Made by a program: the position numbers and the translations under genes. 32,000 nucleotides of DNA, taken from Methanothermobacter marburgensis str. Marburg. Lineage in GTDB: Archaea; Methanobacteriota; Methanobacteria; Methanobacteriales; Methanothermobacteraceae. Where the stretch lies: contig NC_014408.1 in NCBI RefSeq assembly GCF_000145295.1, positions 960,001 to 992,000 of the forward strand, in the 5' to 3' direction. Positions 16,211 to 32,000 of the stretch are shown one piece after another. The notes beneath the pieces are model-generated. The model did not search any database. It had not been told where the DNA came from and worked only from the letters and a program-made list of their open reading frames with translations. Numbering within the stretch: the first letter of the stretch is position 1; each line of letters opens with the position of its first letter.

Positions 16211-16217
16211 CCCATAA

Positions 16218-16385: not shown

Positions 16386-16436
16386 TAATCTAAGAAATTC
16401 CATACTTCGTATATAGAAAAAGGGGGCTGGGGGTTC

Positions 16437-16958
16437 TTGAAGGGTCAGATAATGCTCATTGCAGTTATCCTGTCAGTATTTTTCATGGGATGCACATCTG
16501 CAGAAGAAAATAACACCACAGCGAACATCACATCAGAAACCCAGCCATCAGTGGAACCACTTGCAACTGGCATTAATTTAAGCGTGGATCCCACAAGCCT
16601 CAACCTCGGAACTGTGGATCCGGATGGAATAGAAAGGGAATACTACACCGCAACAAATGTATCAATAATAACAAGGAGGGGGACCTTAGTGGTCTACCTG
16701 ATGGCCAGCGGTGACCTTATAAGCATAAACAACAGTTCAAACACCATACCCCTTTCAAATCTGAAATACAGCATAAAATATGAGAGTCCCTATGGGCCGA
16801 TCGAGGTCCCAAAAAGAAGTTTTACAACCAGTTACTATATGATATGGACCTACACAGGCCGTGTTAGTGTAGTGATCCCAGTTAATTACTACATAACTGT
16901 ACCCCTCTACACGGACCCCGGCACATACACAGTCACCATAACCTACGTGGCAGTTTAA
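16437..16958 (+). CDS. Secreted hypothetical protein (signal peptide with lipobox-like FFMGC)
   Basis: 173-aa ORF starting at TTG 16437 or ATG 16452. The N-terminus is IMLIAVILSVFFMGCTSAEENN, and the mature part is beta-rich with N-x-S/T sequons. No family was recognised. Confidence 0.6.
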   Translation: MKGQIMLIAVILSVFFMGCTSAEENNTTANITSETQPSVEPLATGINLSVDPTSLNLGTVDPDGIEREYYTATNVSIITRRGTLVVYLMASGDLISINNSSNTIPLSNLKYSIKYESPYGPIEVPKRSFTTSYYMIWTYTGRVSVVIPVNYYITVPLYTDPGTYTVTITYVAV

Positions 16959-16982
16959 ACTAAAAATTAATAATTGAGGGGG

Positions 16983-17864: not shown

Positions 17865-18019
17865 GATCAATCTCCTCCTGTTAGAATAAACAGCACATTT
17901 ATATCTGAAAACCAACTGTTAAATATCTTGCCCGGGTTGCTGCTCCCGAAAATATTTAAGATGAGGAATCATAACATAAGCAGAGGATGATGAATCATAG
18001 CTAAACCAGCAGGTTTTCC

Positions 18020-18223
18020 GTGATAAAAATGGTGGCAGGAACATTCACAGGGTCTGTGATTTACTCACATGCTGTACCCGCAATTCTTGGATTTACAGGA
18101 CTGATACTCCTATGTAACGGTATGATGGATGATAAGAGGGACCAGGTGCTTGCAGGTCTCGGTTTATTCTTTGCAGCAGGGCTGCTTCCGTTCATCATAC
18201 TGCCCCTGATCCTTGGTATCTGA
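18020..18223 (+). CDS. Small hypothetical membrane protein (2 TM)
   Basis: 67-aa ORF (GTG 18020 or ATG 18029) with two hydrophobic helices. No SD is present and no family was recognised. An antisense ORF overlaps it. Confidence 0.35.
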   Translation: MIKMVAGTFTGSVIYSHAVPAILGFTGLILLCNGMMDDKRDQVLAGLGLFFAAGLLPFIILPLILGI

Positions 18224-18249
18224 AACCATTCCATTGGGAAGCGATTCAC

Positions 18250-19074
18250 TTAAATTTTTCCCTCAAGCTTTCTTGTTGCCATGAGTGATGCAAAGTTTCC
18301 GGCAGCCTCAGGGTCAGAGGTCCTCCTCATATGGACATAGGCAGCCATGTATGTATCCCCCAGCCCTGTTGGGTCAAGTTCCCTTTCTGCAGTAACAGCC
18401 ATTATCCTTATGAGGGACCCCTTATGGGATATCAGGGAGCCCCTGGGTCCACAGGTCACTATGACCTCACCGCAGTGTTCACTGAGTATCCCAATAGCCC
18501 CCATGATGTCACTGGAAACTGCTCGAAGTTCGTTGATATCAAGAAAAGCACCACTCCCCGCCTCCAGGACCCGAGGGATTTTCTTCCTGAATTTCAGTCT
18601 GACCATGTCTCCCGCAGGGTATCTCAGGTAGCCCTGAAGTCCTGTGTAGAGCCTGTGCCTTTTTCCCAGAAACTCCAGGGTCTCCAGGGGTATGTCTGAG
18701 GGCAGAAGAGGCCCTGCAAGGACGGCGGTCCACTCCTCCCTTGCAATTGTTTCAATATCCCCAATTTCAATTGGGTTACTGGCAAAATTGGACCTCTGGA
18801 TCCTCCTCGAGGTATCCCCGTTATCATAGATATTCTCAAACTCAACCGTTGAGTCCCTGTAAAGGGGTATTATGTTTGTATTGGACGGGAATTCACCGAG
18901 AAGGCGCCTGTCAGCCTCTGACAGGGTTACAACTGCCGTGTGGTCAACCCCAAGGTGTGAGAGTAGCCGGGAATAGTAGTAAACGGCGCCCCCCACCCTG
19001 GACTCTGTGGAGTTCCTCCTCACTATCCGGTCCATGCTAACAGGACCAATAAGGAGGTACCTTTCTTTGTTCAC
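18250..19074 (-). CDS. PfkB/ribokinase-family kinase
   Basis: 274 aa with a C-terminal PfkB-type anion-hole motif, DPTGLGDT, and an N-terminal GGAVYY. Its GTG start overlaps the upstream stop (GTGA), which suggests translational coupling with the HisA/HisF-like gene. Confidence 0.7.
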   Translation of the reverse strand: MNKERYLLIGPVSMDRIVRRNSTESRVGGAVYYYSRLLSHLGVDHTAVVTLSEADRRLLGEFPSNTNIIPLYRDSTVEFENIYDNGDTSRRIQRSNFASNPIEIGDIETIAREEWTAVLAGPLLPSDIPLETLEFLGKRHRLYTGLQGYLRYPAGDMVRLKFRKKIPRVLEAGSGAFLDINELRAVSSDIMGAIGILSEHCGEVIVTCGPRGSLISHKGSLIRIMAVTAERELDPTGLGDTYMAAYVHMRRTSDPEAAGNFASLMATRKLEGKI

Positions 19075-19754
19075 CCGGGCCTCACCATCCCCTCATGGAG
19101 AGCCCTTCCAACAAGAACCTTCCTCACACCCATGGCCTCAAATTCAGGTATCTCGTTGGGTAGAACACCGCCACCGGGTATCACCCTCCTGATGATTGGC
19201 CTGAAGAGTTCAAGGAGGTCCCTGTTGAACCCTGAGGATGTGCCAACTGCCCCCAGGTCAAGGAGTATAACGTCAGACTCATAGCCGAGGAGGAGGTCCC
19301 TGAATTCTTCAAGTTCAAGGTCAATGTTCTCTGAGTGGAGTTTCATGTCCTTAACATCCACGCTTACAACGGTCCTCTCTGGGGGATATGTTTTAAGGAT
19401 GTATTCAAGTTCCTCTGTACTCTCAAGGGTCTCTGTTGCGGCAACAACCCGTGATGCAAACTGGAGCATGAATCTGAATGTCTCCCTGTTTTTTACCCCT
19501 GCGTCGAGGGTTACCGGCAGCACATGGTTAACCCTTCCTACGCTATCAAGATTGGATCCTGTGCCCTCGATGGCGTCAAGGTCGGCTATGTAGATTGACC
19601 GTGCCCCGGCTGCCCTGAGGGAGAGTGCTATATTCACAGGGTCGGGGGCTGACGAGAACACAGTCTCGAGGGGTCTGTAATTTTCACGTTCACCTGATTT
19701 GCCGGCTACCGCTATACCTCCCCTCAGATCAATAACAGGTATGACTTCAATCAT
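19071..19754 (-). CDS. HisA/HisF-family (beta/alpha)8-barrel protein of unknown specificity
   Basis: MIEVIPVIDLRGGIAV, IYIADLDAIEG and VIPGGGV are typical of the HisA/HisF family. The start is set at ATG 19754 (GAGGT 7 nt upstream). The track start 19859 would translate a degenerate repeat copy. Confidence 0.7.
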   Translation of the reverse strand: MIEVIPVIDLRGGIAVAGKSGERENYRPLETVFSSAPDPVNIALSLRAAGARSIYIADLDAIEGTGSNLDSVGRVNHVLPVTLDAGVKNRETFRFMLQFASRVVAATETLESTEELEYILKTYPPERTVVSVDVKDMKLHSENIDLELEEFRDLLLGYESDVILLDLGAVGTSSGFNRDLLELFRPIIRRVIPGGGVLPNEIPEFEAMGVRKVLVGRALHEGMVRPG

Positions 19755-19810
19755 ATGGATACCTCTAAGAAGAAGTGAAATATCAGAACTCATTTTGGGT
19801 TTGGGATATT

Positions 19811-19981
19811 TAAAGTTTTCAGAGAAAATGGGAATGGTAAGCCACATGAACCATATCATCTGAAGTTTTCAGAAAAACTAAAAAATGGGAACGGGTAAAC
19901 TACCCCTGAACCATTACCATCAAACTTTCCAGAAAAAAACTAAAAATTAGAATGGTAAGCTACCCCTGAACCATTATAAGC
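19811..19981. repeat. Degenerate tandem triplication (~50/61/60 bp) of the 3' end and flank of the ExbD-like gene
   Basis: Copy C (19922-19981) contains the last codons and stop of the ExbD-like CDS (ctacccctgaaccattataagc). Copy B (19861-19921) repeats ctacccctgaaccattaccatc and the flank gttttcagaaaaactaaaaaatggga. Copy A (19811-19860) is more diverged. Confidence 0.8.
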
Positions 19982-20298
19982 TTACCTGTCTTGGGGTCCC
20001 TGTAAACTGTTCCCATCTCAACGTATCCCTGACCAGACCCCGAACTGGTCTCGGGAGTGTTGTTGAGCTCCTGGCCCTTCTGAACCTCAACTGCCTTCTT
20101 CATTGCCTCCATGGTTTCCTGACGCTCCTGTGGAGTCATGTCAGCGAATACGACATTCTGCATGTTCCAGGAGAGCACCAGGAATATGAGGAAGCCCACA
20201 GACAGGACCAGCATGGCATCAACCAGGTTTGCGCTTCCGGCCATCGGGTCCTCTTCATTTTGATCCGACAGGAGCCTTCGCCGGCGTCTGAGCGGCAT
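19960..20298 (-). CDS. ExbD/TolR-like single-pass membrane protein (DUF2149-like)
   Basis: 112 aa with an Arg-rich N-terminus (PLRRRRRL). The TM segment [19 protein letters not shown] resembles the ExbD/TolR LIDVMLVLLIFF helix, and a short soluble tail follows. The start overlaps the ExbB-like gene by 44 nt; ATG 20244 is the alternative. Confidence 0.7.
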
Positions 20299-20935
20299 TA
20301 TCCATCACCTCCAGCACTGCCTCGGCCATGGTCTCAAGGTTTGAGAGGTACTCCTCATACCATCTGCGCCTGACCTTTGAGATTACGTAGGCTATACCCC
20401 CTGATGCCAGGCCCACGACTGTTGTGTCAAAGGCTATGATGATGGCCTGGGCCAGTGTATTTATATCCCCTGCACCGAGGGCTGCCAGGCCGGGCCCCAT
20501 GGGTATGAGTGTCCCCATAAGACCAAGGGTTGGTCCGAGCCTTGTCACGATGTCCGTCTTCTCGAGGCTCTTTGCAGCCTTGAGCTCCTCGTTCTCTATG
20601 AGTTTCCTTGCAAGGGCCTCCCTTGATTTGGGTCCCAGTTCTGAAGTCTCCGCAATATTTGTAAGGACCTCCTTCTGGCTCTGTGGTATCTCCATTGAAT
20701 TTACAACCTCAATTATCCTCTCAGGGGTTCCTGGATTGGAAATTGATTTTATAGCGGATTCCAGTTCCCTGATGTCAGTCCTTATTCTTCCAGAGTACTC
20801 TGACATTAGCCCGCCAAGAGTTATTATTGCATAGACCATGAATAACAGGAGCCCTGCTATAACAGGTATGAGGAGACTCTGGGAGACAACGTGTAGTGCG
20901 CCGCTCAGTATTTCACTGCCGGGTACTGCAACCAT
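20255..20935 (-). CDS. MotA/TolQ/ExbB-family proton-channel protein
   Basis: 226 aa with three TM segments. [20 protein letters not shown] matches the MotA/TolQ/ExbB channel signature. GGTGAT lies 5 nt upstream of the ATG. Confidence 0.85.
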
Positions 20936-20951
20936 ATCCTATCACCTCTCC

Positions 20952-21662
20952 TTATTCTATGAAAGTGCTCTTTCTCTTGTTAAGGTAAATTCCAAGTCCC
21001 ATGAGCGCCAGTGTCCCCAGCACAACATATATTATGGTGTTTATGCCTGGAACCGTCAGTGGCGTCATTTTCATGCTCATGGCGCTGTTCACATTTGGAA
21101 GCACAATGGCAGCTGTCAGGAAGTAGAGACCGGCAAAAAGCATGAAGTTGCCCAGCAGAACAGGGTAGGGTTTATTGATTGCTGATGCGACTCCATTGGC
21201 AAATAAATAGAAGAACGCTATGAAGGCTGCCAGAATTATTCCGGAATATTTGCCGAGTGTGATTGCTGATACACCGAGTATGGGTGATACAAGTATTATG
21301 CTGACGATCACCGCCCCGAAACAGCAGGGGCAGGGCGCCACCATTGCAACGCACGCAGTCTTTGCTGTGTCCCTCCTGTGTTCCTTCCACTCACGGAGGG
21401 TGTGCACACCGGCAAATATCAGAATGGATGCCATTATGATTGTTATCAGTGAACTGTAGGTGTTGAAGAAGCCCTGAATCGAGTTCATGTAGGCATTTGC
21501 AAGGGCTGCAAGACCATATATGCCAAGACCGTAACCCGCCGTTATTAGGGCGGCCATCTTCCTTGATAGCCCCGCGAAACCCATTGCCAGTCCAATCTTC
21601 ACGCCGAATATCAGTAAAACCGATAGGATTCCCGCCTGCCAAAGTAGGTTTGCCATGTCCAT
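20952..21662 (-). CDS. Polytopic membrane protein with intramembrane CPCC motif (DUF2162-like predicted transporter)
   Basis: Hydrophobic throughout, with ACVAMVAPCPCCFGAV in a TM helix (Cys codons at 21321-21332). I prefer ATG 21662 (AGGTG 6 nt upstream) to the track GTG 21671. The gene ends 16 nt before the ExbB-like start. Confidence 0.75.
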   Translation of the reverse strand: MDMANLLWQAGILSVLLIFGVKIGLAMGFAGLSRKMAALITAGYGLGIYGLAALANAYMNSIQGFFNTYSSLITIIMASILIFAGVHTLREWKEHRRDTAKTACVAMVAPCPCCFGAVIVSIILVSPILGVSAITLGKYSGIILAAFIAFFYLFANGVASAINKPYPVLLGNFMLFAGLYFLTAAIVLPNVNSAMSMKMTPLTVPGINTIIYVVLGTLALMGLGIYLNKRKSTFIE

Positions 21663-21692
21663 GTTCCACACCTTCTCTTTTCAACTTTATAA

Positions 21693-21722
21693 TAATTACT
21701 ATATAAATTAAATTATTACTAT
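21693..21722 (-). promoter_or_regulatory. Putative promoter of the permease/ExbB/ExbD operon: TATA box bracketed by two motif copies
   Basis: The minus strand reads ATAGTAATAA-tttaa-TTTATATA-GTAATTA. The TATA box is at 21700-21707, and the motif copies are at 21713-21722 and 21693-21700, whose motif cores start 20 bp apart. Confidence 0.4.
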
Positions 21723-21865
21723 TTCGCAGGATTAAAGCAGTATTTTAATACCATATTTCTTATTACTATTAGGCCCTAATGAGTAATAACTCATTCAAAC
21801 AATTTTTATTAGAATTAAAGTAAATCTGATATTTAATGTTTTCTAAAAAATAAATTATGGTGGGC

Positions 21866-23680
21866 CTACCTCCTTCCAGGTCCAAGGAAGTATCCCACAC
21901 CCACAAGTACCAGTATGGCTGCTATACCTGCCACTCCATATAACGGGAACTCTGTTCTCTGATTGACCGCTGAATGAGTTTCTTTCACCTCATAGGATTT
22001 CTGCTGACCTGCCTCTTCACCGGCTGAATCCTGTGAAGAATCTGAAACAACTGCCTGTGAAGCCGCGGAGGTTCTTCCAGCAGAACCATCAGCGGAAGTT
22101 CTTCCAGAGGATCCGCCACCTGTGGCTGAAGGGCCTGTTGTGGGTCCTGTGGATGGATTCTCACCTGGATTCACATCACCGGATGGTTCAGGTGCAAACA
22201 CCGACGCCCCTGTTGCCGCATAGAGTGCTGCAGTGAATTTCTTCCTGAGATCAGAGGACATGTACTGGCTGATCCACTTCATCAGTTCCCTGTCACCGCA
22301 GACCGATCCTGAACATGAAACACCATTCTCGGCAACGTAATTTCCAAGGCACTCTGCAATGAATGCAAGCTGCTCACTCCTGGCATTCCACTGGCCCCTG
22401 TTTGCCATCTCGGCAAAATGTGCCAGTATGTCCATTGCGGCGTAGGGGTTCTTTGAATAGGCTGTCTTCAGTCCAAGATTGTATTTATCTGCAACCACAG
22501 CGTCATAGTACTCATCCCAGAAGCCACTGTCAAGGAGTTCAGGCACCGTGTATTCCCATCCCACCAAGTGGGATGTGTACTTGGCTATGGTCCTTGGCCC
22601 CTGATACCCCTCATTAATGATTGCCTTGATCCACTCGGGATTCAGGTACCTTGTTCTGTATTCAATGGCTATAAACTGCTTCAGTGACATGACCCGGGGA
22701 TTGCCTGGGTTTGCATATCTCAGTACGTAGAGTTCCGGGGCCCTTCCATTGTTCATCATCTCGATAGCCATTGAAAGGCCGCCGAAGTAGTCGAAGTAGT
22801 CGTCGTTATCAACAACCCCATACAGGTTGGTGTTTCTGCTGTGGTATGCCGTTTGAATACCCTTGAGGAGTTCCTTGAAGGTTTCGGGCATTGAAACGCC
22901 CCAGGAACGTTCACTGTATGCATGGCTCATCCTGTTGAAGTAGATGTCTGCAAGTTCGCTTCTGTCGTTCCAGGTCCATGACACCTCTGTACCCTTACTG
23001 ACACCGGCACCGTAATCACCAACAGGCGGTGCGAAGATCCTTGTGATGGCGATTTCACCTGCATCAGTGGCGTTAAGACCCGCCTGCATGTACCTCAGGG
23101 TATCATTGATCCAGTGGAGTGCAATGTAGTTGGTGCGCAGAGGCTCGCTTCCCCTGAAGTTTGTATACTTGGCATCAACAAGTGTCTGCAGCACATGGTC
23201 AAGTGATGTTTTAAGTGACGGATAGGCCGCGACTATCTCACTGTATGAAGCGGCAAGGGCAACCCTGTATGCCCTGTCCATGTTGATGAGGAGCCTCGGG
23301 AACAGGTCCCTGAAGAGTCCGCTTGTTGTTACGATTGGATCCACCCTGGGCCTTTCTGTGAAGTTTGAAAGTCCAGATGCGGACCTTACTGAATTGATAT
23401 CTGCGAGTAGCTGTGATAGTGGTGTTGCCTTTATGTTTCCAGCCGAACCCGTTGATGACCATGTTGGCTCCACACCCATGAGTCTGAGTACGAAGGATAC
23501 CATTGTACCGTCATCACGGACAGTTTCAACACACCATACAACGGCAGCCACCTTCTCAGGTATGACATCGAACTGTACAAGTGCCATGTCAGCCAGCCTC
23601 TTACCCAGGTTCCATGCCGTCCTTGTCGGCATGAGGTTCTCTGATACCGCATAGAAGTTACTGCCTGTTGGAAGTGCCAT
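21866..23680 (-). CDS. CobN/Mg-chelatase-H family protein, C-terminal fragment with Ser/Gly/Pro linker and C-terminal TM anchor
   Basis: It starts MALPTGSNFY (canonical CobN LPTGRNFY), and YGVVDNDDYFDYFGGL is the CobN-type DDYYQYLGG motif. The C-terminus is a low-complexity linker followed by FPLYGVAGIAAILVLVGVGYFLGPGRR. It continues the 23658-26207 ORF after a 1-nt frame change at 23681-23684. Confidence 0.85.
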   Translation of the reverse strand: MALPTGSNFYAVSENLMPTRTAWNLGKRLADMALVQFDVIPEKVAAVVWCVETVRDDGTMVSFVLRLMGVEPTWSSTGSAGNIKATPLSQLLADINSVRSASGLSNFTERPRVDPIVTTSGLFRDLFPRLLINMDRAYRVALAASYSEIVAAYPSLKTSLDHVLQTLVDAKYTNFRGSEPLRTNYIALHWINDTLRYMQAGLNATDAGEIAITRIFAPPVGDYGAGVSKGTEVSWTWNDRSELADIYFNRMSHAYSERSWGVSMPETFKELLKGIQTAYHSRNTNLYGVVDNDDYFDYFGGLSMAIEMMNNGRAPELYVLRYANPGNPRVMSLKQFIAIEYRTRYLNPEWIKAIINEGYQGPRTIAKYTSHLVGWEYTVPELLDSGFWDEYYDAVVADKYNLGLKTAYSKNPYAAMDILAHFAEMANRGQWNARSEQLAFIAECLGNYVAENGVSCSGSVCGDRELMKWISQYMSSDLRKKFTAALYAATGASVFAPEPSGDVNPGENPSTGPTTGPSATGGGSSGRTSADGSAGRTSAASQAVVSDSSQDSAGEEAGQQKSYEVKETHSAVNQRTEFPLYGVAGIAAILVLVGVGYFLGPGRR

Positions 23681-26207
23681 GGGGTTTCCTGATGGGGTCG
23701 TTACCTGAACGTGGTGTTATGAACCCTCCGTTAAGGGCATCGAGAAGCGAGTTCATCTCTGAACCGAAGCTCTGATTTATAAGGTAAGCGTATCCCTTTG
23801 CCCTGTTAAGGAGTTCTATTATCTGTGCATCGTCTGTTAGGGTCTCCGGTGCTCTTCCCCTTATTATCTGGAGTATCCAGTCCACTGTCCTGTTGTTAAC
23901 CTCTTCTGCCTGGATCGCCGTGAGTTTATCGAAGTCCATGCCCATGCTGGAGGCTATAAGCCTCTGTAGCGAAGGGCTGGATGGTCCTCCGTCTGCGGAT
24001 ACTATGGCTGCTGCAAGTAGAGCCACCTCTTCATCGGTCCAGGTAAGGCCGAATGTGTGGAGCCCGACAGGCATGAGGGTCTGCTGGAGCATCACAAGGT
24101 AGTCATCAACCTTTTCAACGTCGTCCTCTGTGAAGTTTTCAGGGTTTATGTTGATCTCCGGGGCGATGTTTAGCTTTATAACCATGTTCCTTATGGACTC
24201 AAGGTACTCAGCCTTAAGGGGGCTTGCATCCGGTGTTCTTGAGTAGGTGTCTATAAGTGCCCTGAGTTCGAGGAGGTCACCGTAGAGCTGGGTTGTCTTA
24301 AGTGGTGGTGTTAGATGGTCAACTATAACGGCGTATCCCCTTCTCTTGGACTGTATGCCCTCACCCACACCGTCCACGATGTATATGTATACTGAGGGCT
24401 TTGTACCGGCACATATCTGTGAGAAGTCAAAGTTGCTGAGTGCGACCTGCTTTCTTGGGAGCCACTCGTATGTTGCATGTCTGCCTATGTGGACCTGGGC
24501 ATCCGCATTGAACACCGTGTTAACCCATGCATACCATGCAAGGTACTGGTGTGGTGGTGCCACGACCGTGCTGTGGTAGAGTTTATCAACGTCTGCCTCC
24601 CATCCCCTCTGGGGTTCAGGGCCAATGAATACGTTGCCAAACATTATACCTGGTATGACGATGTACTTTCTGCCTTTTCTCTCCACTGTCATGACATTAC
24701 CTGGTGGGGCGCCCCATCCATTGAATCCAGGAACTGCAAGGGACTGGAATTCATTTTTGAAGTTATAGAACATGCTCCACGGTGCATCTGTGCTCTGACC
24801 TGTCCTTGCATTGTTGAGAACTGCTTTCAGTGCTTCTGTCATGTTTCTTATGAGAACTGATGCCTGCTGTGCCCTCTCAGGGTAGGTGTTTGCAAGTGAT
24901 ATCATCTCAGAGGACCACTTATCAAGGGTATTCAGGGCTGCGGTGTATGCAGTGTCACTGGAGACGTAGCTGAGCGCGAGCTTAACCATCTCCTCAATGT
25001 AACCCACAGGACCCTCCACGACCTGTTTTCTCGCAATCGGGTTCATGGTCTGGAACCATGCATAGTATTCCTCCGCATCCCAGAGGATGATGGAGGTTTT
25101 ATTTGCAAGTTTCTCGAGTTCCCCCGGTGCCCATGTTGCAACGTTTATTCCCCTCTCAGTGAGGAGCTTCACAAGGTCATCAGCCGTTGAAGGGAACCCT
25201 GAAACACTGTACCCTGCACTCTGCAATGCCTTAAGAATTTCAACTATAGTCTCCGGGACGTTGAGGTAGCTTGCACCTATGTTACCCTTTCCCGGTGGAT
25301 AGTTGTAGTATATGAGTGCTATCTTCTTCTCAGGGTTGGTGAGGTACTTCAGCCTGACCCAGTTACCGATCCTGTCTGCAAGGTAATCCATCTGCTCCTC
25401 TATCGGAGTGTATGCGACGATTTCAACCCCTGTTACCGGGTCAATGCTCTTTGCGGGTGCTGCGACGAAGATGGGTTCAATGATCCCCTGTGTCTCGGGT
25501 ATCGCTATCTGGTAGTAGGTGTCGCTCCAGAGCAGCCCGTCATCCGAGAGCAGCCATTCACCCTCCTCCCTCTTGGTTGATATCATGGCCCTGAAGACAG
25601 GCACATTCATCTTCTCAAGTAGAGCAGCGGTCTGATTGACGAATCCTGAGCCAAGGGTGAATGTTGTGAAGCTTACAAGGGCATCTATCCTGTACCTGTA
25701 GTAATCACGGTTTGCCTCGTATTCTGCTGCGGTGACAACCCTTGATGGGTCTGCCGGGTCGTAGGTGAAGAACTTGACCATGGCTGAGTAGATGTTGAGT
25801 GGCTGTGTCCCGTTAACACCTGAATAGGCACCCACCACGGGTATGACATTCATTCCACGTGCAGTGAGTTTTGCTATTATGCTGTCAAAGTGGGCCATGT
25901 CCCCTGAGAGGAGTACGCTGTCAAGTCCCGCGATTCCAATGGTGGGCCTTGATGGGTTAAGGGGGTATGCTGCAAGGTACTCTGCGAGGCTGGTGAAGAC
26001 CCTGCCGTCCCTGTAGAGCATCTCTGCAGGGAGAGTTACGGGTGCTGATGGTTCCCATGCTGAGGGCCAGGTCCCTCCATTCATCACCGTGAAGTTCTTG
26101 AGAAGGAGTTTGAACTGGTTTTCATAGTTGATGGTCCCCTTCTTTGCATAGTAGAGACCGTAGGCTACCCATGGGGCAAGCTGGGGGTATGTGTTCACGT
26201 ATGCCAT
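23658..26207 (-). CDS. CobN/Mg-chelatase-H family protein, central fragment
   Basis: 849-aa ORF. VHIGRHATYEWLPRKQV matches the CobN HxGxHGxxEWLPGK motif. It ends ...SGNDPIRKPHGTSNRQ*, whereas the canonical sequence continues DPIRxPxxLPTGxN, which is found in the next frame. Confidence 0.88.
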   Translation of the reverse strand: MAYVNTYPQLAPWVAYGLYYAKKGTINYENQFKLLLKNFTVMNGGTWPSAWEPSAPVTLPAEMLYRDGRVFTSLAEYLAAYPLNPSRPTIGIAGLDSVLLSGDMAHFDSIIAKLTARGMNVIPVVGAYSGVNGTQPLNIYSAMVKFFTYDPADPSRVVTAAEYEANRDYYRYRIDALVSFTTFTLGSGFVNQTAALLEKMNVPVFRAMISTKREEGEWLLSDDGLLWSDTYYQIAIPETQGIIEPIFVAAPAKSIDPVTGVEIVAYTPIEEQMDYLADRIGNWVRLKYLTNPEKKIALIYYNYPPGKGNIGASYLNVPETIVEILKALQSAGYSVSGFPSTADDLVKLLTERGINVATWAPGELEKLANKTSIILWDAEEYYAWFQTMNPIARKQVVEGPVGYIEEMVKLALSYVSSDTAYTAALNTLDKWSSEMISLANTYPERAQQASVLIRNMTEALKAVLNNARTGQSTDAPWSMFYNFKNEFQSLAVPGFNGWGAPPGNVMTVERKGRKYIVIPGIMFGNVFIGPEPQRGWEADVDKLYHSTVVAPPHQYLAWYAWVNTVFNADAQVHIGRHATYEWLPRKQVALSNFDFSQICAGTKPSVYIYIVDGVGEGIQSKRRGYAVIVDHLTPPLKTTQLYGDLLELRALIDTYSRTPDASPLKAEYLESIRNMVIKLNIAPEININPENFTEDDVEKVDDYLVMLQQTLMPVGLHTFGLTWTDEEVALLAAAIVSADGGPSSPSLQRLIASSMGMDFDKLTAIQAEEVNNRTVDWILQIIRGRAPETLTDDAQIIELLNRAKGYAYLINQSFGSEMNSLLDALNGGFITPRSGNDPIRKPHGTSNRQ

Positions 26208-26794
26208 TAGACGGGATTCATTGGAGTTTTTAAGGTCGTACAGGATTGTGTTTTCGTGTCGGTGTTTCCTATGACTGATGATGGAATACCGTCAAATATT
26301 CTGACTCCATTTATCTGTGACATGCTGGTAAGGTCAGGGTCGCTTTCAAGGACCATGAATATCTTGTTTGACCTGTTGGATGCTATTTCAGGGTAGGCAT
26401 TCATGACGTTCCTGAAGTTTCCTGAGTCAAAGAGCCACTCTGCAATCACTATATCTGCGGATTCTATAAGCGCCCTGAGTTCCTCGGGGTTCATGCTGGC
26501 TATCTGCGCTGTGGTCCTCACCTCAAAGCGTACCGTCCATGTAGATTTATTCTCTGGATCGTAACCCGGCTGTGATGGATTTATGAGGTCCATGACCTTC
26601 TTTGCAGCGTCATTGGTCATCTTGGAACTTGTAGATGAATGTATCACAAGCACCACAGGGTCTTTAATCTGATCCGTGCCATTTACTGTCAAAGGATCTG
26701 TATCAACCTGCGTAGTGTTGTCTGCTGCTGCCACGGTCTGGCAGAGCATTGCCATGAGAAGAACTGCTGTTACTGTCATCAGATGTTTTCTCAT
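26207..26794 (-). CDS. CobN-like protein, N-terminal fragment with Sec-type signal peptide
   Basis: The N-terminus MRKHLMTVTAVLLMAMLCQTVAAA is a signal peptide. The remainder (VVLVIHSST..., ADIVIAEWLF..., KIFMVLESDPDL) resembles the first CobN domain. GGAGGTGA lies 6 nt upstream of the ATG. The stop overlaps the next ATG (TAATG), and the downstream frame is open for 27 more codons upstream. Confidence 0.75.
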   Translation of the reverse strand: MRKHLMTVTAVLLMAMLCQTVAAADNTTQVDTDPLTVNGTDQIKDPVVLVIHSSTSSKMTNDAAKKVMDLINPSQPGYDPENKSTWTVRFEVRTTAQIASMNPEELRALIESADIVIAEWLFDSGNFRNVMNAYPEIASNRSNKIFMVLESDPDLTSMSQINGVRIFDGIPSSVIGNTDTKTQSCTTLKTPMNPV

Positions 26795-26904
26795 AACTTT
26801 TCACCTCCTTTCATTTTTTTATATGGTATTATGCTGTACTCATAGAAAAACATTTATTATTACTGAATCAGGGATGTATAAAAAATTAGTATTATTAGAT
26901 CCAT

Positions 26905-26946
26905 ATTATTACTTAATTTATATAATTCCCTGAGAAAAGTAATAAT
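26905..26946 (-). promoter_or_regulatory. Putative promoter of the CobN-like gene: TATA box flanked by an inverted 9-mer pair
   Basis: ATTATTACT (26905-26913) and its exact reverse complement AGTAATAAT (26938-26946) flank TTATATAA (26918-26925). A third ATTATTACT lies at 26856-26864. Confidence 0.4.
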
Positions 26947-26978
26947 CGGACTGAAACAAAAAAAATAAAGGGGAGGTT

Positions 26979-29873
26979 TTATTTTCCTGCTCCGCCTCTC
27001 AGGAATCCGAATGCCACGAGACCTGCTGCAACAAGAACCCCGACGATACCGTAGACGTACCATGCTGATGAACCGCTGCCGCTACCTGAGGAGGTTACGT
27101 TTTCAACCTCATAGGCCCTGGCAGGGGCTGGTTCCTCTGTGGATTCTGAAGCAGCGCCAACCTCCGCAGGTGATGCCACGCTTGCTGAAAGGCCAGGTGA
27201 AACACCGCCTGTCCTTCCTGTAGTTCCGGTTGACCCATGGACACCGCCGGTTGAACCACCTGGAAGGCCTCCTGGAACTCCGCCAGGAATTCCGCCCTGG
27301 TTGCCGCCATCCACAGGTACCTGAGGTAGAATGTCTGCAAGTGTCCTGTCTGCAGGTATGCCCTTAACAAAGGCAAGTGGACTGCCACCATCTGCACCTG
27401 AAAGTATCATCTGAAGTTCAGATTCGGTTATGTATCTCTCTGCCTCTATTTTCACGACTGGGGCTGCTGTCATGTAAGATGGTGTTTCACCCTTGTAGAG
27501 GCTTATGAAACCTGCTATCTGTTTTTCTCTTTTGGCCTCATCGGTTGTGCAGTCACTCACATCAAACTGCGGCCACTGGAAGCCGATGATAACAGCCCTT
27601 CCAACCTTTTTGACACTGTCCCAGATGATCAGGATACCTTCAATTGAACCTCCAAAGTCATCGTCATCGGACATGGTATCTGCGCTTGGAAGCCTGAGGT
27701 TGAAGTAGGTTCCCTGTCCAGGTGAGACTCCCAGCCTGTAGACTATTGCATCGTCCTTGCAGTAGATGGTGTTACCCAGGTAGATGTAGCTCTCGTTCTC
27801 ATTGAGGGGGTAGTTGTTGAATATGTGCTCGGTTATGATGTAACCCGGTGATACACCTGGACATGCATGGTCATGGAAGAGGAATGTGAGTATCTGGTCG
27901 TAGGGCGGGTCGTGTCTCCATGCGTTTGCTATAGTCTGGATATTGAACCATCCATCCATTGCAAAGACCTTTGAAACCTTGCCTGTAAGCGCTGTGCTGT
28001 TAAGGGTCCTTGGACCAATGTCGTTCACGTATTTGCCGTCTGATGCATTGCTTGCAACTAGCTGTCCTGTTGCAGGGTCATAGTAGATGTACACCGCATC
28101 CATTGTAACTCCATCATAGCCCCTGAGTACAAATGTGAACCAGAGTGGCTTCCAGAGCGGCCTGTGGATTGGTAGGAGCGTTGCCCTGCTGAGCCTTGAT
28201 CCGAGAACATCAAATATTCCATCCCATGCCGCGCTCGTATCCTGTCCGTTGAGCCTTGAATAACCTGCTGATGTGAGTACAACAAGGTCCCTGTCATCCT
28301 TCTCAAGGTTTATACCCTTTTCCTGAAGGAATAACTGCTTAGCAAGGTTTGCAGCATCAGCACCGATCTTCTTTATCTGCTCGTAGGTCAGGGTGCCCTG
28401 TGGCAGTGGATTGTTTTCACGTGTTGCATTTGGAAGTCCCAGGCTGTCAATGTATGCCATGTCAAGGCCATGGGCCCTCTGGGCGCTTATATTGTACACA
28501 TTTCCATTCGCATCCCTGACTGTTGTGTTGCTTGCTGAACCAAGGAGATAGTAGTAGTGGGTTACGTTGAGGTCGGTAAGTTCCCTTACTATGGTGACGA
28601 GGGATGTTGGGTCCTGTTTAAGTTTACTTATGAGCCATGCGTTGAATTCAAGCTCTGTCCTCTTACCTGTCTCCTGCTGGAACTGCTGCCTCAGTGCTTC
28701 CTTGTCGAACTTCATGATTATAAGGTCGCCCTTGAGGGTTTTTGGGTTCCATCTGATGAATCCAACAAGGTTTGTGTCCGCACCTGTGGCTGTTGTGTTG
28801 AAACCGCTGTATGATCCTCCCTTACCCGGTGTTGTGTCAAGGAACATGAGCAGGGAGTCATCGTCTGAGTCGCCCGGGACACCTATGGTGATGTAGTTTG
28901 TTATCTCACCTGGAGAGCCCGGTGATGTGATGTCCATGATCGGTGGGTAGTACTTGAGCAGTGTGAGGCTCATTGCGTAACCGCTTATGGTACCGAGGCA
29001 CATGTGCCCGTGGAAGGCCGCTGCCCTCAGGAGGTCTGCTGGAGCATCCTGCATCCATGCATTGGCAAGGCTTGCAACAGGGAATGCGTGTTCCCCGTAT
29101 TTACTTACCAGAAGGTTCCAGTTGGCCTCTGTCATGTTCTTTAAGAGGTCGATGGTGTATATCGGTTTCCCATTGACTGTTCTGATGACAACAGGTGTTG
29201 TGCTTGCATTCTTGAAGAACACTCCAGTTAACGTGTTCCCCTTCTGGAGGATGAAGAACGTGTCCAGGGGATCCACGGGAGTCTTCCTGATCATCAGGAG
29301 GTTGCCCTTACCGTAGGTGACAATTCCTCGTGCCTGGTTCAGTATGCCCTCAATCACATCCTCTGATGTGTCGCCCCTGTACTTGACAATGCCTGCGGTT
29401 GTGATTACAAGGACATTTCCACTTGAGAAGTTGAGGATCTCATCTGCCTTCTTTGTTATTTCCCTTCCGAGCCTGTAGGCGTCGGTTGCATTCATCTTGA
29501 ATGAGAGGTGTGCATAGTAGTTCGGATCAGAGTTATCGTAGGGGTTCCTGGATAGTGTGAAGTGGTGTAAAATGTCCTTGTAGCCGGGTGCTGTTATTTT
29601 TATTGTGAACCTGGTTGTTTCCGTAACCACAGGGGGCTGGAAGGTTATCTTTGTCAGGTTGCTTGCCGGGTCAAACCTCTTTGTGAAGTTAAGCTTTTCA
29701 CCGTTCTCATCACTGATGTAGTTTATGTCTGGATTGATGCGGGTGTTGTCATCTGCGAATTCATACGTGACATTCACCCCCACCTCACATTCTGGCGTTA
29801 CTGCTGAAGCAGAGCCCGTCAGTGCAAAAGCAAAGAGAAGAGCCATTAGAACCATGAAATACTGTCTTCTCAT
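26979..29873 (-). CDS. Secreted, C-terminally membrane-anchored protein with two FmdE-like domains
   Basis: 964 aa. The signal peptide is MRRQYFMVLMALLFAFALTGSASA, and N-x-S/T sequons are numerous. There are two copies of the FmdE-type motif: ANAWMQDAPADLLRAAAFHGHMCLGTISGY (about 28977-29081) and ANAWRHDPPYDQILTFLFHDHACPGVSPGY (about 27840-27941). A Gly/Pro/Ser linker and the TM helix WYVYGIVGVLVAAGLVAFGFL follow. GGAGGTGA lies upstream of the ATG. Confidence 0.8.
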   Translation of the reverse strand: MRRQYFMVLMALLFAFALTGSASAVTPECEVGVNVTYEFADDNTRINPDINYISDENGEKLNFTKRFDPASNLTKITFQPPVVTETTRFTIKITAPGYKDILHHFTLSRNPYDNSDPNYYAHLSFKMNATDAYRLGREITKKADEILNFSSGNVLVITTAGIVKYRGDTSEDVIEGILNQARGIVTYGKGNLLMIRKTPVDPLDTFFILQKGNTLTGVFFKNASTTPVVIRTVNGKPIYTIDLLKNMTEANWNLLVSKYGEHAFPVASLANAWMQDAPADLLRAAAFHGHMCLGTISGYAMSLTLLKYYPPIMDITSPGSPGEITNYITIGVPGDSDDDSLLMFLDTTPGKGGSYSGFNTTATGADTNLVGFIRWNPKTLKGDLIIMKFDKEALRQQFQQETGKRTELEFNAWLISKLKQDPTSLVTIVRELTDLNVTHYYYLLGSASNTTVRDANGNVYNISAQRAHGLDMAYIDSLGLPNATRENNPLPQGTLTYEQIKKIGADAANLAKQLFLQEKGINLEKDDRDLVVLTSAGYSRLNGQDTSAAWDGIFDVLGSRLSRATLLPIHRPLWKPLWFTFVLRGYDGVTMDAVYIYYDPATGQLVASNASDGKYVNDIGPRTLNSTALTGKVSKVFAMDGWFNIQTIANAWRHDPPYDQILTFLFHDHACPGVSPGYIITEHIFNNYPLNENESYIYLGNTIYCKDDAIVYRLGVSPGQGTYFNLRLPSADTMSDDDDFGGSIEGILIIWDSVKKVGRAVIIGFQWPQFDVSDCTTDEAKREKQIAGFISLYKGETPSYMTAAPVVKIEAERYITESELQMILSGADGGSPLAFVKGIPADRTLADILPQVPVDGGNQGGIPGGVPGGLPGGSTGGVHGSTGTTGRTGGVSPGLSASVASPAEVGAASESTEEPAPARAYEVENVTSSGSGSGSSAWYVYGIVGVLVAAGLVAFGFLRGGAGK

Positions 29874-29928
29874 ACCTTTTCACCTCCTTTTATCTTTAAT
29901 TATTAATAATGTACAGAACTATAATGGA

Positions 29929-29945
29929 AGTAATAACATATATAA
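29929..29945 (-). promoter_or_regulatory. Putative promoter of the double-FmdE gene: TATA box immediately followed by the TTATTACT motif
   Basis: The minus strand reads gaTTATATATgTTATTACTtcc. The TATA box is at 29938-29945 and the motif at 29929-29936, ~55-65 nt upstream of the start codon at 29873. Confidence 0.45.
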
Positions 29946-30007
29946 TCATTTTGTTAATACCTTTACCTGTCGTGAAGGGATAAAAGTAATACTCAATTTT
30001 ACTTGAT

Positions 30008-30038
30008 AAAAAAAGGATTCATGGGGAAACCCCATGAA
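30008..30038 (-). terminator. Hairpin plus T7 terminator downstream of the NAS-like gene
   Basis: The minus strand reads TTCATGGGG-ttt-CCCCATGAA-tcc-TTTTTTT. The stem is a perfect 9 bp (30018-30038), and the T-run corresponds to plus-strand A7 at 30008-30014. Confidence 0.6.
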
Positions 30039-30230
30039 CTGATTGATGGAGGGAAAAATTTAATATCCAACACCGTACTGGTGTTACACTTATATCTAAA
30101 ATATGATGAGTATTTAACACTTACTATTTCATTTGTATTAATAATTAATGGGTTCCTGAGGATTCCACAGTAATAATCAACTCATCTGAAGTTTAATTGA
30201 ACTCAGGAGAGCTTGATTGGATTGAAGGTC

Positions 30231-30596
30231 CTAATCAGGGGATTTGAATACAAGTACAGATGTATTGTTAACCTTACCCGATGGTAGAACAATGCCTGCC
30301 CTCCTGAAACCCCTTACATCCTCATCACCTACAGGTGAGTAGAGTATGGCCCTCATCCCGGTGTAGGTCCTGTAAATGACCCTTGTATCCCCATCAACAT
30401 AGCGGTGGATGTTCCTGAAAACCCTCTCCTTTGGCTCTGCAAGGGCCGCCACAAGCACTATGTCGAATTCAAGGTCCCTTATTGCTGTCTCATCACCGTT
30501 GATTACCCTAACATCCCCTTCAAGTCCAAGTTTCTCTATGACCCTTCCTGCAAGTTCCGCCAGTTCGGGTTCAACTTCAACAACCGACACCCCCAT
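30231..30596 (-). CDS. Nicotianamine synthase-like protein (MtNAS type), C-terminal fragment
   Basis: GVSVVEVEPELAELAGRVIEKLG, FDIVLVAALAEPKERVFRNIHRYV, IYRTYTGMRAILY and LPSGKVNNTSVLVFKSPD match my memory of the M. thermautotrophicus thermonicotianamine synthase. The frame is open upstream through LTGILLASVHG to the C/G runs at 30629-30637. Confidence 0.8.
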   Translation of the reverse strand: MGVSVVEVEPELAELAGRVIEKLGLEGDVRVINGDETAIRDLEFDIVLVAALAEPKERVFRNIHRYVDGDTRVIYRTYTGMRAILYSPVGDEDVRGFRRAGIVLPSGKVNNTSVLVFKSPD

Positions 30597-31033
30597 GCCA
30601 TGGACACTTGCCAGGAGAATCCCTGTGAGGGGAGGGGCCCTCCCCCAATAAAGACTATTCTTTCACCCTCCCTGTACCTGCCAAGGGTTGCCTCATTTTT
30701 AAGGAGCTCGATGTAGCGAGGGTAAAAGTAGAACGACCCTAGCGTCTTCCACGGGTCCTCTGAGGCAAGGACCTCCTCAGCCTTTTCAATTTCAAGTTTC
30801 ATCCCGAGGTTGACGTAGAATCTCCTTATTACCCTGAGGGCATGATTCATCCCGGGATCATCAAGGATGTGCTTTGCAGATTCAAAGTCAATGGACTCAT
30901 CATGGGCTATCTCCTCAATCTCATCAAGGAGGGGGATTACGGCTTCAACGTTCATCCCATGTATCCCATAATCCATACCCTCAAGTCTTGATGCTATCGA
31001 CCTGATCCTATCCCAGTAGATGTAACAGCTCAT
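30536..31033 (-). CDS. Nicotianamine synthase-like protein, N-terminal fragment (frame lost at 30629-30632)
   Basis: MSCYIYWDRIRSIASRLEG..., FYFYPRYIELLKNE and ERIVFIGGGPLP are followed by nonsense (SQGFSWQVSMAWGCRLL...). The expected continuation LTGILLAS is in the frame of the 30231-30596 ORF. Confidence 0.8.
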   Translation of the reverse strand: MSCYIYWDRIRSIASRLEGMDYGIHGMNVEAVIPLLDEIEEIAHDESIDFESAKHILDDPGMNHALRVIRRFYVNLGMKLEIEKAEEVLASEDPWKTLGSFYFYPRYIELLKNEATLGRYREGERIVFIGGGPLPSQGFSWQVSMAWGCRLLKLNPNWRNLQEGS

Positions 31034-31362
31034 GAATATACTTCCATGTAGTTTGTGGACGATGCTCCTTTAATTGGATTAATAAACGGATCCAAGGTTT
31101 ATGGATGATCCCCCATCCAGATCTGAATTAATAACAGACCCCCTATGTTATCATAAACAGGCATCCTTTATTCGCCGGCACATATTAGTTTTGCCATGGT
31201 ACTTATAGGAGATATGGATACATATTATACACAAGGAATGTAGTATTACATATAATCCTTAAAATCGTGATAAAGTATTACTTTGGGGTGGTGTTTATTA
31301 TCAGAGTAACGACACCGGGAGAAGAGTAGGATCCTAAATCAGTCAGGGCATTTCTCTTCAGG

Positions 31363-31875
31363 ATGATAAAGAGGGAGTTCGGTTTTGATTACATACCCGA
31401 GTACCACAGGGACATAGTCAACCTTGAAGAATACTACCTGGAACCTGAAAGGAACACCTTCCTCCTTGCCTGCATTGGTGACAGGCTGGTTGGAACCCTC
31501 GGCCTCCGCGCCTATGACCGTGAATTCAGGGGCCTCAATTACGACCCTGAAAGGACGGCCAGCCTCTGGAGGGTCTTTGTGCATGAGGACTGCAGGAAGA
31601 TGGGTGTTGCATCATACCTTGTGGAAATTGCAGAATCCTTTGCAGCAGAGAAGGGCTATACCCGTATCTACCTTCACACTCATAAACACGTTGAGGGTGC
31701 CCTTGAATTCTGGCTCTCAAAGGGTTACAGCATAGTTATTGACACTGACAATGAACTTGGAACCGTCCACATGGAAAAGTCCCTTAACAGGAGTTCAATG
31801 GGAAACCAGGATTTCAGTGGAACCTGTTCTACCATAAAAAGAGGAGGAACAGGGCATCAGATGACATTTTTTTGA
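31363..31875 (+). CDS. GNAT-family N-acetyltransferase (as called from ATG 31363; N-terminal strand lies upstream of an in-frame TAG)
   Basis: The GNAT core is FLLACIGDRLVGTLGLR, WRVFVHEDCRKMGVASYLV and YTRIYLHT. In the same frame, VVFIIRVTTPGEE-TAG-DPKSVRAFLFRM precedes the ATG. Confidence 0.75.
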   Translation: MIKREFGFDYIPEYHRDIVNLEEYYLEPERNTFLLACIGDRLVGTLGLRAYDREFRGLNYDPERTASLWRVFVHEDCRKMGVASYLVEIAESFAAEKGYTRIYLHTHKHVEGALEFWLSKGYSIVIDTDNELGTVHMEKSLNRSSMGNQDFSGTCSTIKRGGTGHQMTFF

Positions 31876-32000
31876 GCGAAAGGATTGCTTGATGCCCTGT
31901 TTGAGCTGGCTTCCGTTGATATCCTAGGAGGAATTCATGCTCAGAGATATACTTGGCAGAGGATATATAAATACTTTTTGAAAAAAAATTATTACTCATT

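Follow-up and report, generated by a model that had tools for sequence, protein, structure and literature searches.

The closest described relatives of the locus reported here are the hmuYRSTUV operons of Bacteroidota, in which hmuS encodes a CobN-like protein, hmuU a member of the MotA/TolQ/ExbB family, and hmuV a DUF2149 protein (PMC11681262, PMC10434189). HmuS is an experimentally proven membrane-anchored heme de-chelatase with N- and C-terminal transmembrane (TM) anchors and a solved structure (PDB 9D26); its authors point to many archaeal homologues, in species without complete hmu operons, whose role is unclear (PMC12583661). Metalloporphyrin salvage by BtuS was proposed by Rodionov in 2003 (cited in PMC6460266). 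Here we describe a related locus in Methanothermobacter marburgensis str. Marburg, contained in a 32,000-nucleotide (nt) stretch of DNA (NC_014408.1, positions 960,001 to 992,000 of the forward strand) that we call the window and whose numbering is used throughout. Six minus-strand genes spanning 19960-31033 encode DUF2149, MotA_ExbB (ExbB-like), DUF2162, CobN-like, FmdE, and nicotianamine synthase-like (NAS-like) proteins. We read the locus as part of a nickel-starvation regulon of Methanobacteriales for high-affinity surface acquisition of nickel (possibly cobalt), assisted by the proton-motive force (PMF) and dependent on surface proteins—a reading to which we give a probability of about 0.6. 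A preliminary description of the same DNA knew of no comparable system; the homologous hmuSTUV/BtuS systems of Bacteroidota had been overlooked, as had a 2025 proteome paper that flagged MTBMA_c10530.

Methanogens need much nickel for F430, hydrogenases, and carbon monoxide dehydrogenase, often at nanomolar free nickel, and the scavenging route of Methanobacteriales has not been established. The locus probably represents that route in the wall-enclosed M. marburgensis. We infer an uptake system because of the protein families, an anchored topology (by heuristic), an invariant gene triplet, nickel-specific induction, and a shared operator.

The nickel response is documented by Nomura et al. (Nature 2025), who ran M. 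marburgensis chemostats at 5 µM, 250, 125, 50, and 10 nM nickel, as well as under iron and H2/CO2 limitation (PMC12350162); the figures given here are whole-cell abundances from the source tables of the supplement. The FmdE protein MTBMA_c10580 rises from a mean of 1.9e7 at 5 µM nickel to 6.4e9 at 250 nM (~336-fold, ~3.3% of summed intensity) and remains at a high level down to 10 nM; it falls under iron limitation and is flat under H2/CO2 limitation. The ExbB-like protein MTBMA_c10530 climbs from a mean of 5.5e6 at 5 µM to 1.6-2.2e8 at 250-50 nM (29-39-fold) and is flat under both iron and H2/CO2 limitation. The DUF2162 protein MTBMA_c10540 goes from 0 at 5 µM to ~1e6 at low nickel, being detected under nickel limitation only and undetected under iron limitation. 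The CobN fragments, the NAS fragments, and the DUF2149 protein are absent from these whole-cell tables. The proteome authors name only c10530 of the locus, as a possible nickel transporter (PMC12350162). The expectation of the preliminary description that expression should respond to metal supply is thus borne out, with FmdE, ExbB-like, and DUF2162 products rising strongly and specifically at low nickel.

Pfam profile searches of the window proteins recovered the gene families and coordinates first proposed, and the locus products match MTBMA_c10520-c10580 exactly (look-up: ADL58646-58652, UniProt D9PWP9 to D9PWQ4); the window itself matches CP069376.1. All are read from the minus strand: the DUF2149 gene MTBMA_c10520 (19960-20298; Pfam DUF2149, 1e-24; exact match to ADL58646), the MotA/TolQ/ExbB-family gene MTBMA_c10530 (20255-20935; Pfam MotA_ExbB, 4e-10; product identical to D9PWP9), the gene for the polytopic CPCC membrane protein MTBMA_c10540 (20952-21662; Pfam DUF2162, 7e-73), the frameshifted gene for an ecto-protein of the CobN/ChlH/HmuS superfamily, MTBMA_c10570/60/50 (21866-26794; Pfam CobN-Mg_chel), the gene for the 964-amino-acid (aa) double-FmdE protein MTBMA_c10580 (26979-29873; Pfam FmdE, 1e-22; product identical to D9PWQ4), and the frameshifted NAS-like gene (30231-31033; Pfam NAS on both pieces). 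The 16-nt gap and 44-nt overlap among the DUF2162, ExbB-like, and DUF2149 genes are as first claimed, and profile searches of the window found no TonB-like gene, again in line with that claim. Each transcription unit was first described as having a strong ribosome site; GGAGGTGA-type sites do precede the DUF2149, ExbB-like, CobN-like, and FmdE genes, but that of the DUF2162 gene is weaker and the NAS-like gene has none.

One genome per species was scanned with a DUF2162 alignment, giving 80 loci that belong without exception to Methanobacteriales (Methanothermobacter, Methanobacterium, Methanobrevibacter, Methanosphaera, and Methanoflexus). The ExbB-like gene comes after DUF2162 in 78 of the 80 loci, and DUF2149 does so in 74, with the misses at contig ends; some genomes hold three separate triplets. 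Upstream partners were counted in the 56 informative loci with at least 5 kb upstream, where a ~566-aa secreted beta-helix/NosD plus DUF11 protein occurs in ~11, CbiM in 8, and FeoB in 2-3. The preliminary description had taken a five-gene block as the conserved unit; only the triplet is invariant, with CobN-like genes in 27, FmdE-domain genes in 10, and NAS in 4 of the 56. The DUF2162–ExbB-like–DUF2149 linkage is invariant and the upstream gene varies; therefore, the triplet is the conserved unit and the surface protein is interchangeable.

In four loci (L087:3916-5067, L136:8744-9854, L142, and L152), the gene after CbiM encodes ~160 aa that match nothing in Pfam and carry a signal segment and a C-terminal anchor; the two genes stand between an FmdE gene and the triplet, with neither CbiQ nor CbiO seen nearby. 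Methanobacterium loci with the beta-helix/NosD plus DUF11 protein before the triplet have a DUF169 (COG2043) gene directly after DUF2149 (L107, L110-L112, L116-L118, L120, L121, and L131). In a Methanobacteriaceae metagenome-assembled genome (L114:1010-3880), FeoB and a DtxR-like repressor fused to FeoA lie directly upstream of the triplet, a hint from gene order that some triplets may serve iron or manganese.

The genes are also tied together by a palindrome in their promoters. In the promoter/operator region of the DUF2162–ExbB-like–DUF2149 operon (21663-21865, minus strand), AGTAATAA sites lie at 21713-21720, 21760-21767, and 21782-21789, with a palindrome TATTAC-N16-GTAATA at 21761-21788; the proximal site, 58 nt upstream of the ATG, is closely followed by a TTTATATA box. 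The corresponding region of the CobN-like gene (26795-26978, minus strand) carries AGTAATAAT at 26856-26864 and 26905-26913, and inverted at 26938-26946, with a dyad ATTATTACT-N24-AGTAATAAT, equivalent to TATTAC-N26-GTAATA, at 26907-26944. In the intergenic region that holds the FmdE promoter (29874-30230, minus strand), motif sites are found at 29929-29936 and 30169-30177; this promoter is A-T-rich, with an imperfect palindrome. Together the three promoter regions contain AGTAATAA 9 times, and the same octamer followed by T 6 times, versus 0.9 and 0.23 expected for the window; elsewhere in the window there is one copy only, at the far end. At that edge of the window, beyond the GNAT gene, an exact copy of AGTAATAAT (31988-31996) lies in what looks like a gap between convergent genes.

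Across the 80 loci, AGTAATAA stands 50-58 nt 5' of the DUF2162 start, beside the TATA box, in 33, versus an expectation of ~0.5 based on its overall frequency, with the caveat that the loci are related. It is the right half-site of a palindrome, which was counted 30 times in the form TATTAC-N25-GTAATA, 4 times in the N24 form, and 6 times in the N26 form; all other spacings and two control half-site pairs give at most 2 occurrences. Such sites precede DUF2162, CobN-like, FmdE, NAS, and CbiM genes. The N25 form before genes for CbiM, the S-component of Ni/Co energy-coupling factor transporters, and before a NAS gene near triplets (L100:12731, L101:11837/11880, L103:11883, L129:14353, and L094:653) points to a putative wider regulon. 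The half-sites resemble the published NikR signals GTGTTAC-N13/14-GTAACAC (PMC545781), and M. marburgensis encodes three NikR homologues (MTBMA_c07330, c09830, and c11340; PMC3087415); we hypothesize that the palindrome is a NikR-type operator. No riboswitches were found in the window or in the archaeal loci, and a sigma-70 promoter scan gave counts equal to those of shuffled sequence and was uninformative.

The same census invites another explanation, namely a generic Tol- or Gld-like envelope motor that would serve large surface proteins in secretion, anchoring, or wall passage and have no direct metal role. Such a motor would suit the diversity of large secreted upstream partners, which include beta-helix/NosD, DUF11, CARDB, and PKD adhesin-like proteins, as well as the several paralogous triplets per genome and the many triplets that stand alone; however, it leaves aside the nickel-specific induction, the operator shared with CbiM genes, the recurrent metal-related neighbours (FmdE, CobN, NAS, FeoB, and CbiM), the conserved DUF2162 cysteines, and the bacterial homologues under B12 riboswitches. 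We regard it as very improbable.

The triplet proteins are consistent with a membrane motor joined to a putative permease. MTBMA_c10530 matches MotA_ExbB at 40.1 bits against a gathering cut-off of 22.9, has three TM segments, and carries the GLxGT and TTxxGL motifs as LGLMGT and DTTVVGL; it is 36% identical over 199 aa to HmuU of Bacteroides thetaiotaomicron (E 1e-40) and 34% identical to a homologue on a Geobacter lovleyi plasmid. The DUF2149 protein has one TM segment at residues 25-43 (hydropathy heuristic), and Asp27, Asn24, and Pro18 at the start of this helix are invariant in 21 sequences, including B. thetaiotaomicron HmuV. It therefore has the single N-terminal TM segment with a conserved protonatable aspartate expected of a subunit that would work like those of ExbD/TolR/MotB-type stators; the residues for comparison are D25 of ExbD and D23 of TolR. 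By sequence profile, DUF2149 gave no match to solved ExbD, TolR, or MotB chains in the PDB even at E 10. Within the locus the partner matches DUF2149 only and not ExbD (PF02472), and no ExbB or ExbD NCBIfam model was matched. The third protein matches DUF2162 (PF09930) over its full length (245 bits, profile positions 1-223 of 223) and has ~6 TM segments by the same heuristic; it is polytopic with CPCC at residue 111, as first described, and C104, C113, and C114 are invariant in 17 homologues. The family is small, with 198 clusters at 50% identity among 1.84 billion representatives.

The dominant induced product is the double-FmdE protein, which matches PF02663 at 80.7 bits in two stretches. 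The two HGHxC-type domains of the preliminary description are present, with FHGHMC in the first (HGHMCLG at residue 288) and FHDHAC in the second (HDHACPG at 667); inspection by eye showed a distal cysteine in the second domain alone (…TIYCKDDA…). The FHGHxC motif coordinates metal together with a distal cysteine (His/His/Cys/Cys), with mixed Zn/Ni occupancy in one crystal, and most PF02663 genes adjoin metal transporters (PMC2954224). We propose that MTBMA_c10580 is a surface nickel-capture protein. A phmmer search of the FmdE protein against the PDB returned no match. Its residues 30-100 (window 29784-29574) show a weak resemblance to PF07550, a Shr-like hemoglobin-interacting family (E 2.6e-4, 21.9 bits, below the 22.3 cut-off).

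By the hydropathy heuristic, the CobN-like and FmdE proteins are secreted and anchored, as previously claimed, with N-terminal signal-like segments (VAA/A, ASA/V) and a C-terminal TM helix with a basic tail. A C-terminal module is common to the CobN-like and FmdE partners: an S/G/T/P-rich linker, 'YEV', and a TM helix ending in GYF/GFL followed by basic residues (window 21866-22100 and 26979-27150, and also L166:13800-13979). The G. lovleyi CobN-like protein echoes it as 'GFEMKET…TM…GFGFRRNR'. The module could be a docking or sorting signal.

The CobN-like gene was first described as encoding a single protein of ~1650 aa; it is in fact three open reading frames (ORFs), at 26207-26794, 23658-26207, and 21866-23680 (MTBMA_c10570/60/50; 195, 849, and 604 aa). 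What separates them is a 1-nt indel near 26250 and another near 23680. The Pfam CobN-Mg_chel matches of the two large ORFs (8e-165 and 2e-100) run continuously over the break, from profile position 706 to 709, and two 1-nt corrections give back a 1642-aa CobN-like protein with a signal peptide and a C-terminal anchor. The best PDB matches of the restored protein are roughly equal: HmuS 9d26 (380 bits), CobN 9uk9 (364), and ChlH 4zhj (337). Profile and solved-chain matches thus place it in the class I chelatase large-subunit superfamily (PF02514), but the ORF is not intact. The best NCBIfam CobN/BchH equivalog model, NF004645, gives 337 and 390 bits against a cut-off of 1619, which is not reached. 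The window holds no AAA+ partner gene of the CobST/ChlID type.

Assembly error was at first the favoured explanation of these frameshifts, as homopolymer runs lie at or near the breaks and the ribonucleotide reductase gene of the window is also split; this explanation was rejected. The breaks are real because both complete M. marburgensis genomes show the ORFs split identically, as do three independent metagenome/SRA assemblies, the 604-aa ORF recurring with the same upstream overlap in each. The ribonucleotide reductase gene itself contains an intein and is read as two overlapping ORFs (859-1293 and 1260-2981, plus strand) beside a G6 run at ~1236-1241.

These natural breaks bear on a suggestion made in 2011 for MTH673/MTBMA_c10550-70, namely that the gene encodes a cytoplasmic nickel chelatase for F430 or the CobN of B12 synthesis (PMC3087415). 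Membership of the CobN family accords with it; however, the restored protein carries a signal peptide as well as a C-terminal anchor and stays below every NCBIfam CobN/BchH equivalog cut-off, and the gene is frameshifted in M. marburgensis, an abundant maker of F430 and corrinoids. Nickel insertion into F430 is now assigned to CfbA. Because the frameshifts occur naturally in a strain that makes both cofactors, we consider the idea effectively refuted; the natural knock-outs dispose of the old notion of the CobN homologue as the F430 nickel chelatase.

The NAS-like gene was placed correctly at 30231-31033 and its family is confirmed by Pfam; nevertheless, it too is broken, into ORFs at 30536-31033 and 30231-30596, by a 1-nt deletion near 30630, and one added C restores 267 aa. 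The N-terminal piece (exact look-up: ADL58655) matches the M. thermautotrophicus NAS crystal structures 3FPE/3O31 with E 4e-68. The same deletion is present in an independent assembly, and the M. wolfeii NAS gene is broken at a different site; the lesions of the different lineages thus lie at two separate sites. A terminator-like 10-bp G+C-rich hairpin with a T-run (30017-30039, minus strand) is located downstream of the NAS-like gene, in the intergenic region before the FmdE gene, and would separate the two genes transcriptionally.

Related strains show the same decay in varying combinations. Both CobN-like (1643 aa) and NAS genes are intact in the sister strain KEPCO-1, and in THM-2 the CobN-like gene is intact (1642 aa) and the NAS gene split. 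Several M. wolfeii genomes have the CobN-like gene in pieces of 586, 449, 204, and 192 aa; in other M. wolfeii genomes and in THM-1 it encodes 1639 aa. Therefore, the CobN-like and NAS-like genes decay repeatedly in these strains, and no such damage is seen in the FmdE gene or the three genes for small membrane proteins. Since the two genes are frameshifted here, they are not essential parts of a working machine in this strain; on the best reading, both genes encode accessories, a CobN-like ecto-chelatase and a metallophore synthase, that are dispensable and in decay. Their repeated loss fits an uptake system if, as we assume, the strains grow with ample free nickel. These recurrent knock-outs in cultured strains separate an essential core from its accessories.

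Nucleotide identity to M. wolfeii (L001) reaches 98-100% over 23500-31900, a stretch that takes in the FmdE, NAS, and GNAT genes as well as the N-terminal two-thirds of the CobN-like gene, and is only ~82% over 19900-23500 and 67-84% in the housekeeping flank (compared stretch 9328-23500). Because identity is mosaic on either side of ~23500, recent inter-species recombination is suggested, with a putative breakpoint inside the CobN-like gene. A GNAT acetyltransferase gene (31363-31875, plus strand; Pfam Acetyltransf_1, 4e-17) is the divergent neighbour of the NAS-like gene, and its membership of the locus is uncertain; the arrangement is kept in L001-L003 and L169, even where FeoAB replaces the FmdE gene. 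Further away, a low-GC stretch at 3000-7000 (0.36-0.41 versus ~0.50 elsewhere) encodes O-antigen-polymerase-like and DUF6541-like membrane proteins and may be an acquired envelope-glycan island.

Taken as a nickel-uptake system, the locus could work as follows. The abundant double-FmdE protein would capture Ni2+ outside the membrane at His-His-Cys(-Cys) sites, and DUF2162, with its invariant cysteines in a TM helix, would conduct the metal across. The ExbB-like/DUF2149 pair would form a proton-driven stator of the MotA/ExbB type, DUF2149 supplying the invariant TM aspartate. Such a stator would turn the PMF into mechanical work outside the cell, where ATP is not to be had, and so free tightly bound metal from the surface proteins—the force passing probably via their conserved C-terminal 'YEV…TM…GYF+basic' anchors. 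In this way the stator would take the place of TonB as well as of the AAA+ motor that class I chelatases use. In strains with intact genes, tetrapyrrole-type or other chelates would be stripped of nickel or cobalt by the CobN-like ectoenzyme, and a nicotianamine-type chelator would come from the NAS-like enzyme. Direct coupling of motor to anchor is a tentative element of this scheme, one that we lean against as it stands. Equally tentative, and in our view somewhat doubtful, is the broader proposal of a monoderm archaeal stator that drives a binding-protein-dependent metal importer, docking either on the C-terminal anchors of FmdE-type and CobN-type surface proteins or on DUF2162, and pulling nickel off tight sites at the expense of the PMF.

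The preliminary description had already proposed a Ni/Co uptake machine. Its direction was right, given the induction at low nickel, the operator shared with CbiM, the Zn/Ni binding of FmdE (PMC2954224), and the lack of TonB and an outer membrane; what it misidentified was the conserved core. Several points weigh against the uptake reading. The nickel response is proteomic and comes from one organism, with nickel, iron, and H2/CO2 as the limitations covered. The signal-peptide and TM calls come from simple hydropathy heuristics. DUF2162 is a candidate metal permease on the basis of topology and conserved cysteines only; the CPCC motif is missing from distant family members, and the AF2 model is poor (pLDDT 62). 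Furthermore, 17 of the 56 informative loci have none of the partners counted above, among them many Methanobrevibacter triplets without an adjoining ectoprotein gene, and other triplets adjoin beta-helix adhesin-like proteins or FeoB/DtxR-like genes; because of these contexts the module may serve several cargos or metals.

Comparison with the hmu locus of B. thetaiotaomicron raises the possibility of heme-iron de-chelation as performed by HmuS. Gene order and families follow hmuS-(T)-U-V, with 36% identity for U and DUF2149 for V; HmuS is the best PDB match of the restored protein and likewise has TM anchors at both ends (PMC12583661), and FeoAB is adjacent in L003, L094, and L098, as are FeoB and a DtxR-like regulator in L114. 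The active site gives a divided picture. At site 2, His538, Glu577, and Asp1208 are conserved, but Asp stands in place of His1209 in every archaeal homologue, which CobN has too; the archaeal proteins read 'DNDDYFDYFGG' here, also as in CobN, and HmuS and ChlH have His. At site 1, the heme ligands Met-79 and His-254 are replaced by Ile and Thr at the aligned positions, and none of five archaeal homologues has both ligands. The ~120-residue Met-rich insertion of HmuS is missing as well (at most 5 Met per 60 aa versus 12 in HmuS; the aligned segment has 44 aa and 2 Met). For these reasons—the missing site-1 ligands and insertion, and Asp for His1209—the archaeal protein is not an HmuS in the strict sense. 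HmuT was considered as a distant DUF2162 protein and rejected: there is no BLAST similarity, no Pfam match, no HmuT-like sequence among 150 DUF2162 representatives, and an hhalign probability of 0.7%. Heme de-chelation seems very improbable here, given that HmuT shows no detectable homology to DUF2162, that this strain has a broken CobN-like gene, and that under iron limitation the locus is not induced and the FmdE protein falls.

Bacterial contexts, found by a tblastn search of plasmids, place the same families near cobalamin genes. On pGLOV01 of Trichlorobacter (Geobacter) lovleyi, two tandem cobalamin riboswitches (107 and 65 bits) are followed by TonB-dependent receptor–DUF2162–MotA/ExbB–DUF2149–CobN, with a separate exbB–exbD–tonB set directly after the CobN cluster, all within a cobalamin gene cluster; a Comamonadaceae plasmid has MotA/ExbB–DUF2149–CobN alone. 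The window's set has its closest relatives in these G. lovleyi proteins, and the CobN-like protein (31.6% identical over 998 aa, E 3e-145) is closer than HmuS. Because a canonical exbB–exbD–tonB set is encoded alongside, the ExbB-like/DUF2149 pair is not a TonB energiser; judged from these gene contexts, we conclude that the pair travels with CobN-like proteins across domains.

The pGLOV01 cluster is also an argument for a BtuS-type salvage of cobalt or corrinoids, in which the CobN-like ectoenzyme would remove or exchange cobalt in external corrinoids and the triplet would import metal or corrinoid. To the relative behind two cobalamin riboswitches can be added the DNDD motif of CobN in the archaeal proteins, CbiM beside the triplet in 8 loci, and the BtuS proposal of Rodionov (2003; cited in PMC6460266). 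In M. marburgensis, however, the measured response is to nickel, and the CobN-like gene is broken there and in several M. wolfeii genomes while the rest of the locus is intact and strongly regulated. We judge cobalt or corrinoid salvage unlikely as the main function, though it may overlap with nickel acquisition rather than compete with it.

The nickel-acquisition reading has consequences beyond this species. The locus pairs one of the most strongly nickel-starvation-induced proteins of M. marburgensis with an ExbB/ExbD-like motor, in a cell without outer membrane or TonB, and so offers a concrete candidate for high-affinity nickel uptake that genetics could test. The archaeal and Geobacter contexts also speak against the current picture of HmuU/HmuV in gut and oral Bacteroidota as simply a private ExbBD for HmuR; the two proteins would rather act together with the CobN-like enzyme or the inner-membrane step. 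By extension, if the proposed coupling is true, HmuU/HmuV of Bacteroidota and the proteobacterial DUF2149 pairs would power a CobN-like de-chelatase, standing in for the cytoplasmic AAA+ motor, rather than energise TonB-dependent receptors.

Set against known systems, the triplet resembles ExbB–ExbD–TonB and TolQ–TolR–TolA in its MotA/ExbB channel, its single-pass partner with an invariant aspartate at the TM start, and its overlapping genes. It differs in that TonB, TolA, and an outer membrane are all lacking here, the DUF2149 partner has a ~65-aa ectodomain and not the periplasmic domain of ExbD/TolR, and its clients would be DUF2162 or surface proteins with a C-terminal anchor. With the Nik/CbiMNQO energy-coupling factor (ECF) transporters and NikABCDE under NikR control, the locus shares nickel-responsive expression, a dyad operator with NikR-like half-sites (shared with CbiM in several loci), and a design in which an extracytoplasmic component binds the metal and a membrane permease goes with it; in contrast, it has no ATPase, its energy presumably coming from the PMF via the stator, its operator spacing is N25 (three helical turns), and its binding protein has FmdE domains rather than being a NikA, NikK, or NikN.

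The two nearest systems are those that carry the CobN-like protein. The pGLOV01 cluster has all four families—DUF2162 is 27.5% identical, and its CobN-like protein combines the DNDD motif with a signal peptide and a 'FEMKET…TM' anchor; however, it belongs to a Gram-negative bacterium with TonB-dependent receptors and a separate ExbB-ExbD-TonB set, its gene order is different, it has no FmdE or NAS genes, and its control by riboswitches points to a corrinoid/cobalt role. With HmuSTUV, the locus shares an extracytoplasmic TM-anchored CobN-superfamily protein that keeps the catalytic His538, Glu577, and Asp1208, a ~235-aa polytopic protein, a MotA/ExbB protein (36% identical), a DUF2149 protein, and expression governed by metal starvation. 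It differs in having neither the HmuY hemophore nor the HmuR TonB-dependent receptor (window profile searches), in a middle membrane protein, DUF2162, of the same size and position as HmuT without detectable homology to it, and in a response to nickel rather than iron, with an FmdE-domain surface protein as the dominant induced product and a dispensable CobN-like gene. The locus is thus HmuSTUV/BtuS-like, but with another membrane partner, another dominant surface protein, and another metal signal.

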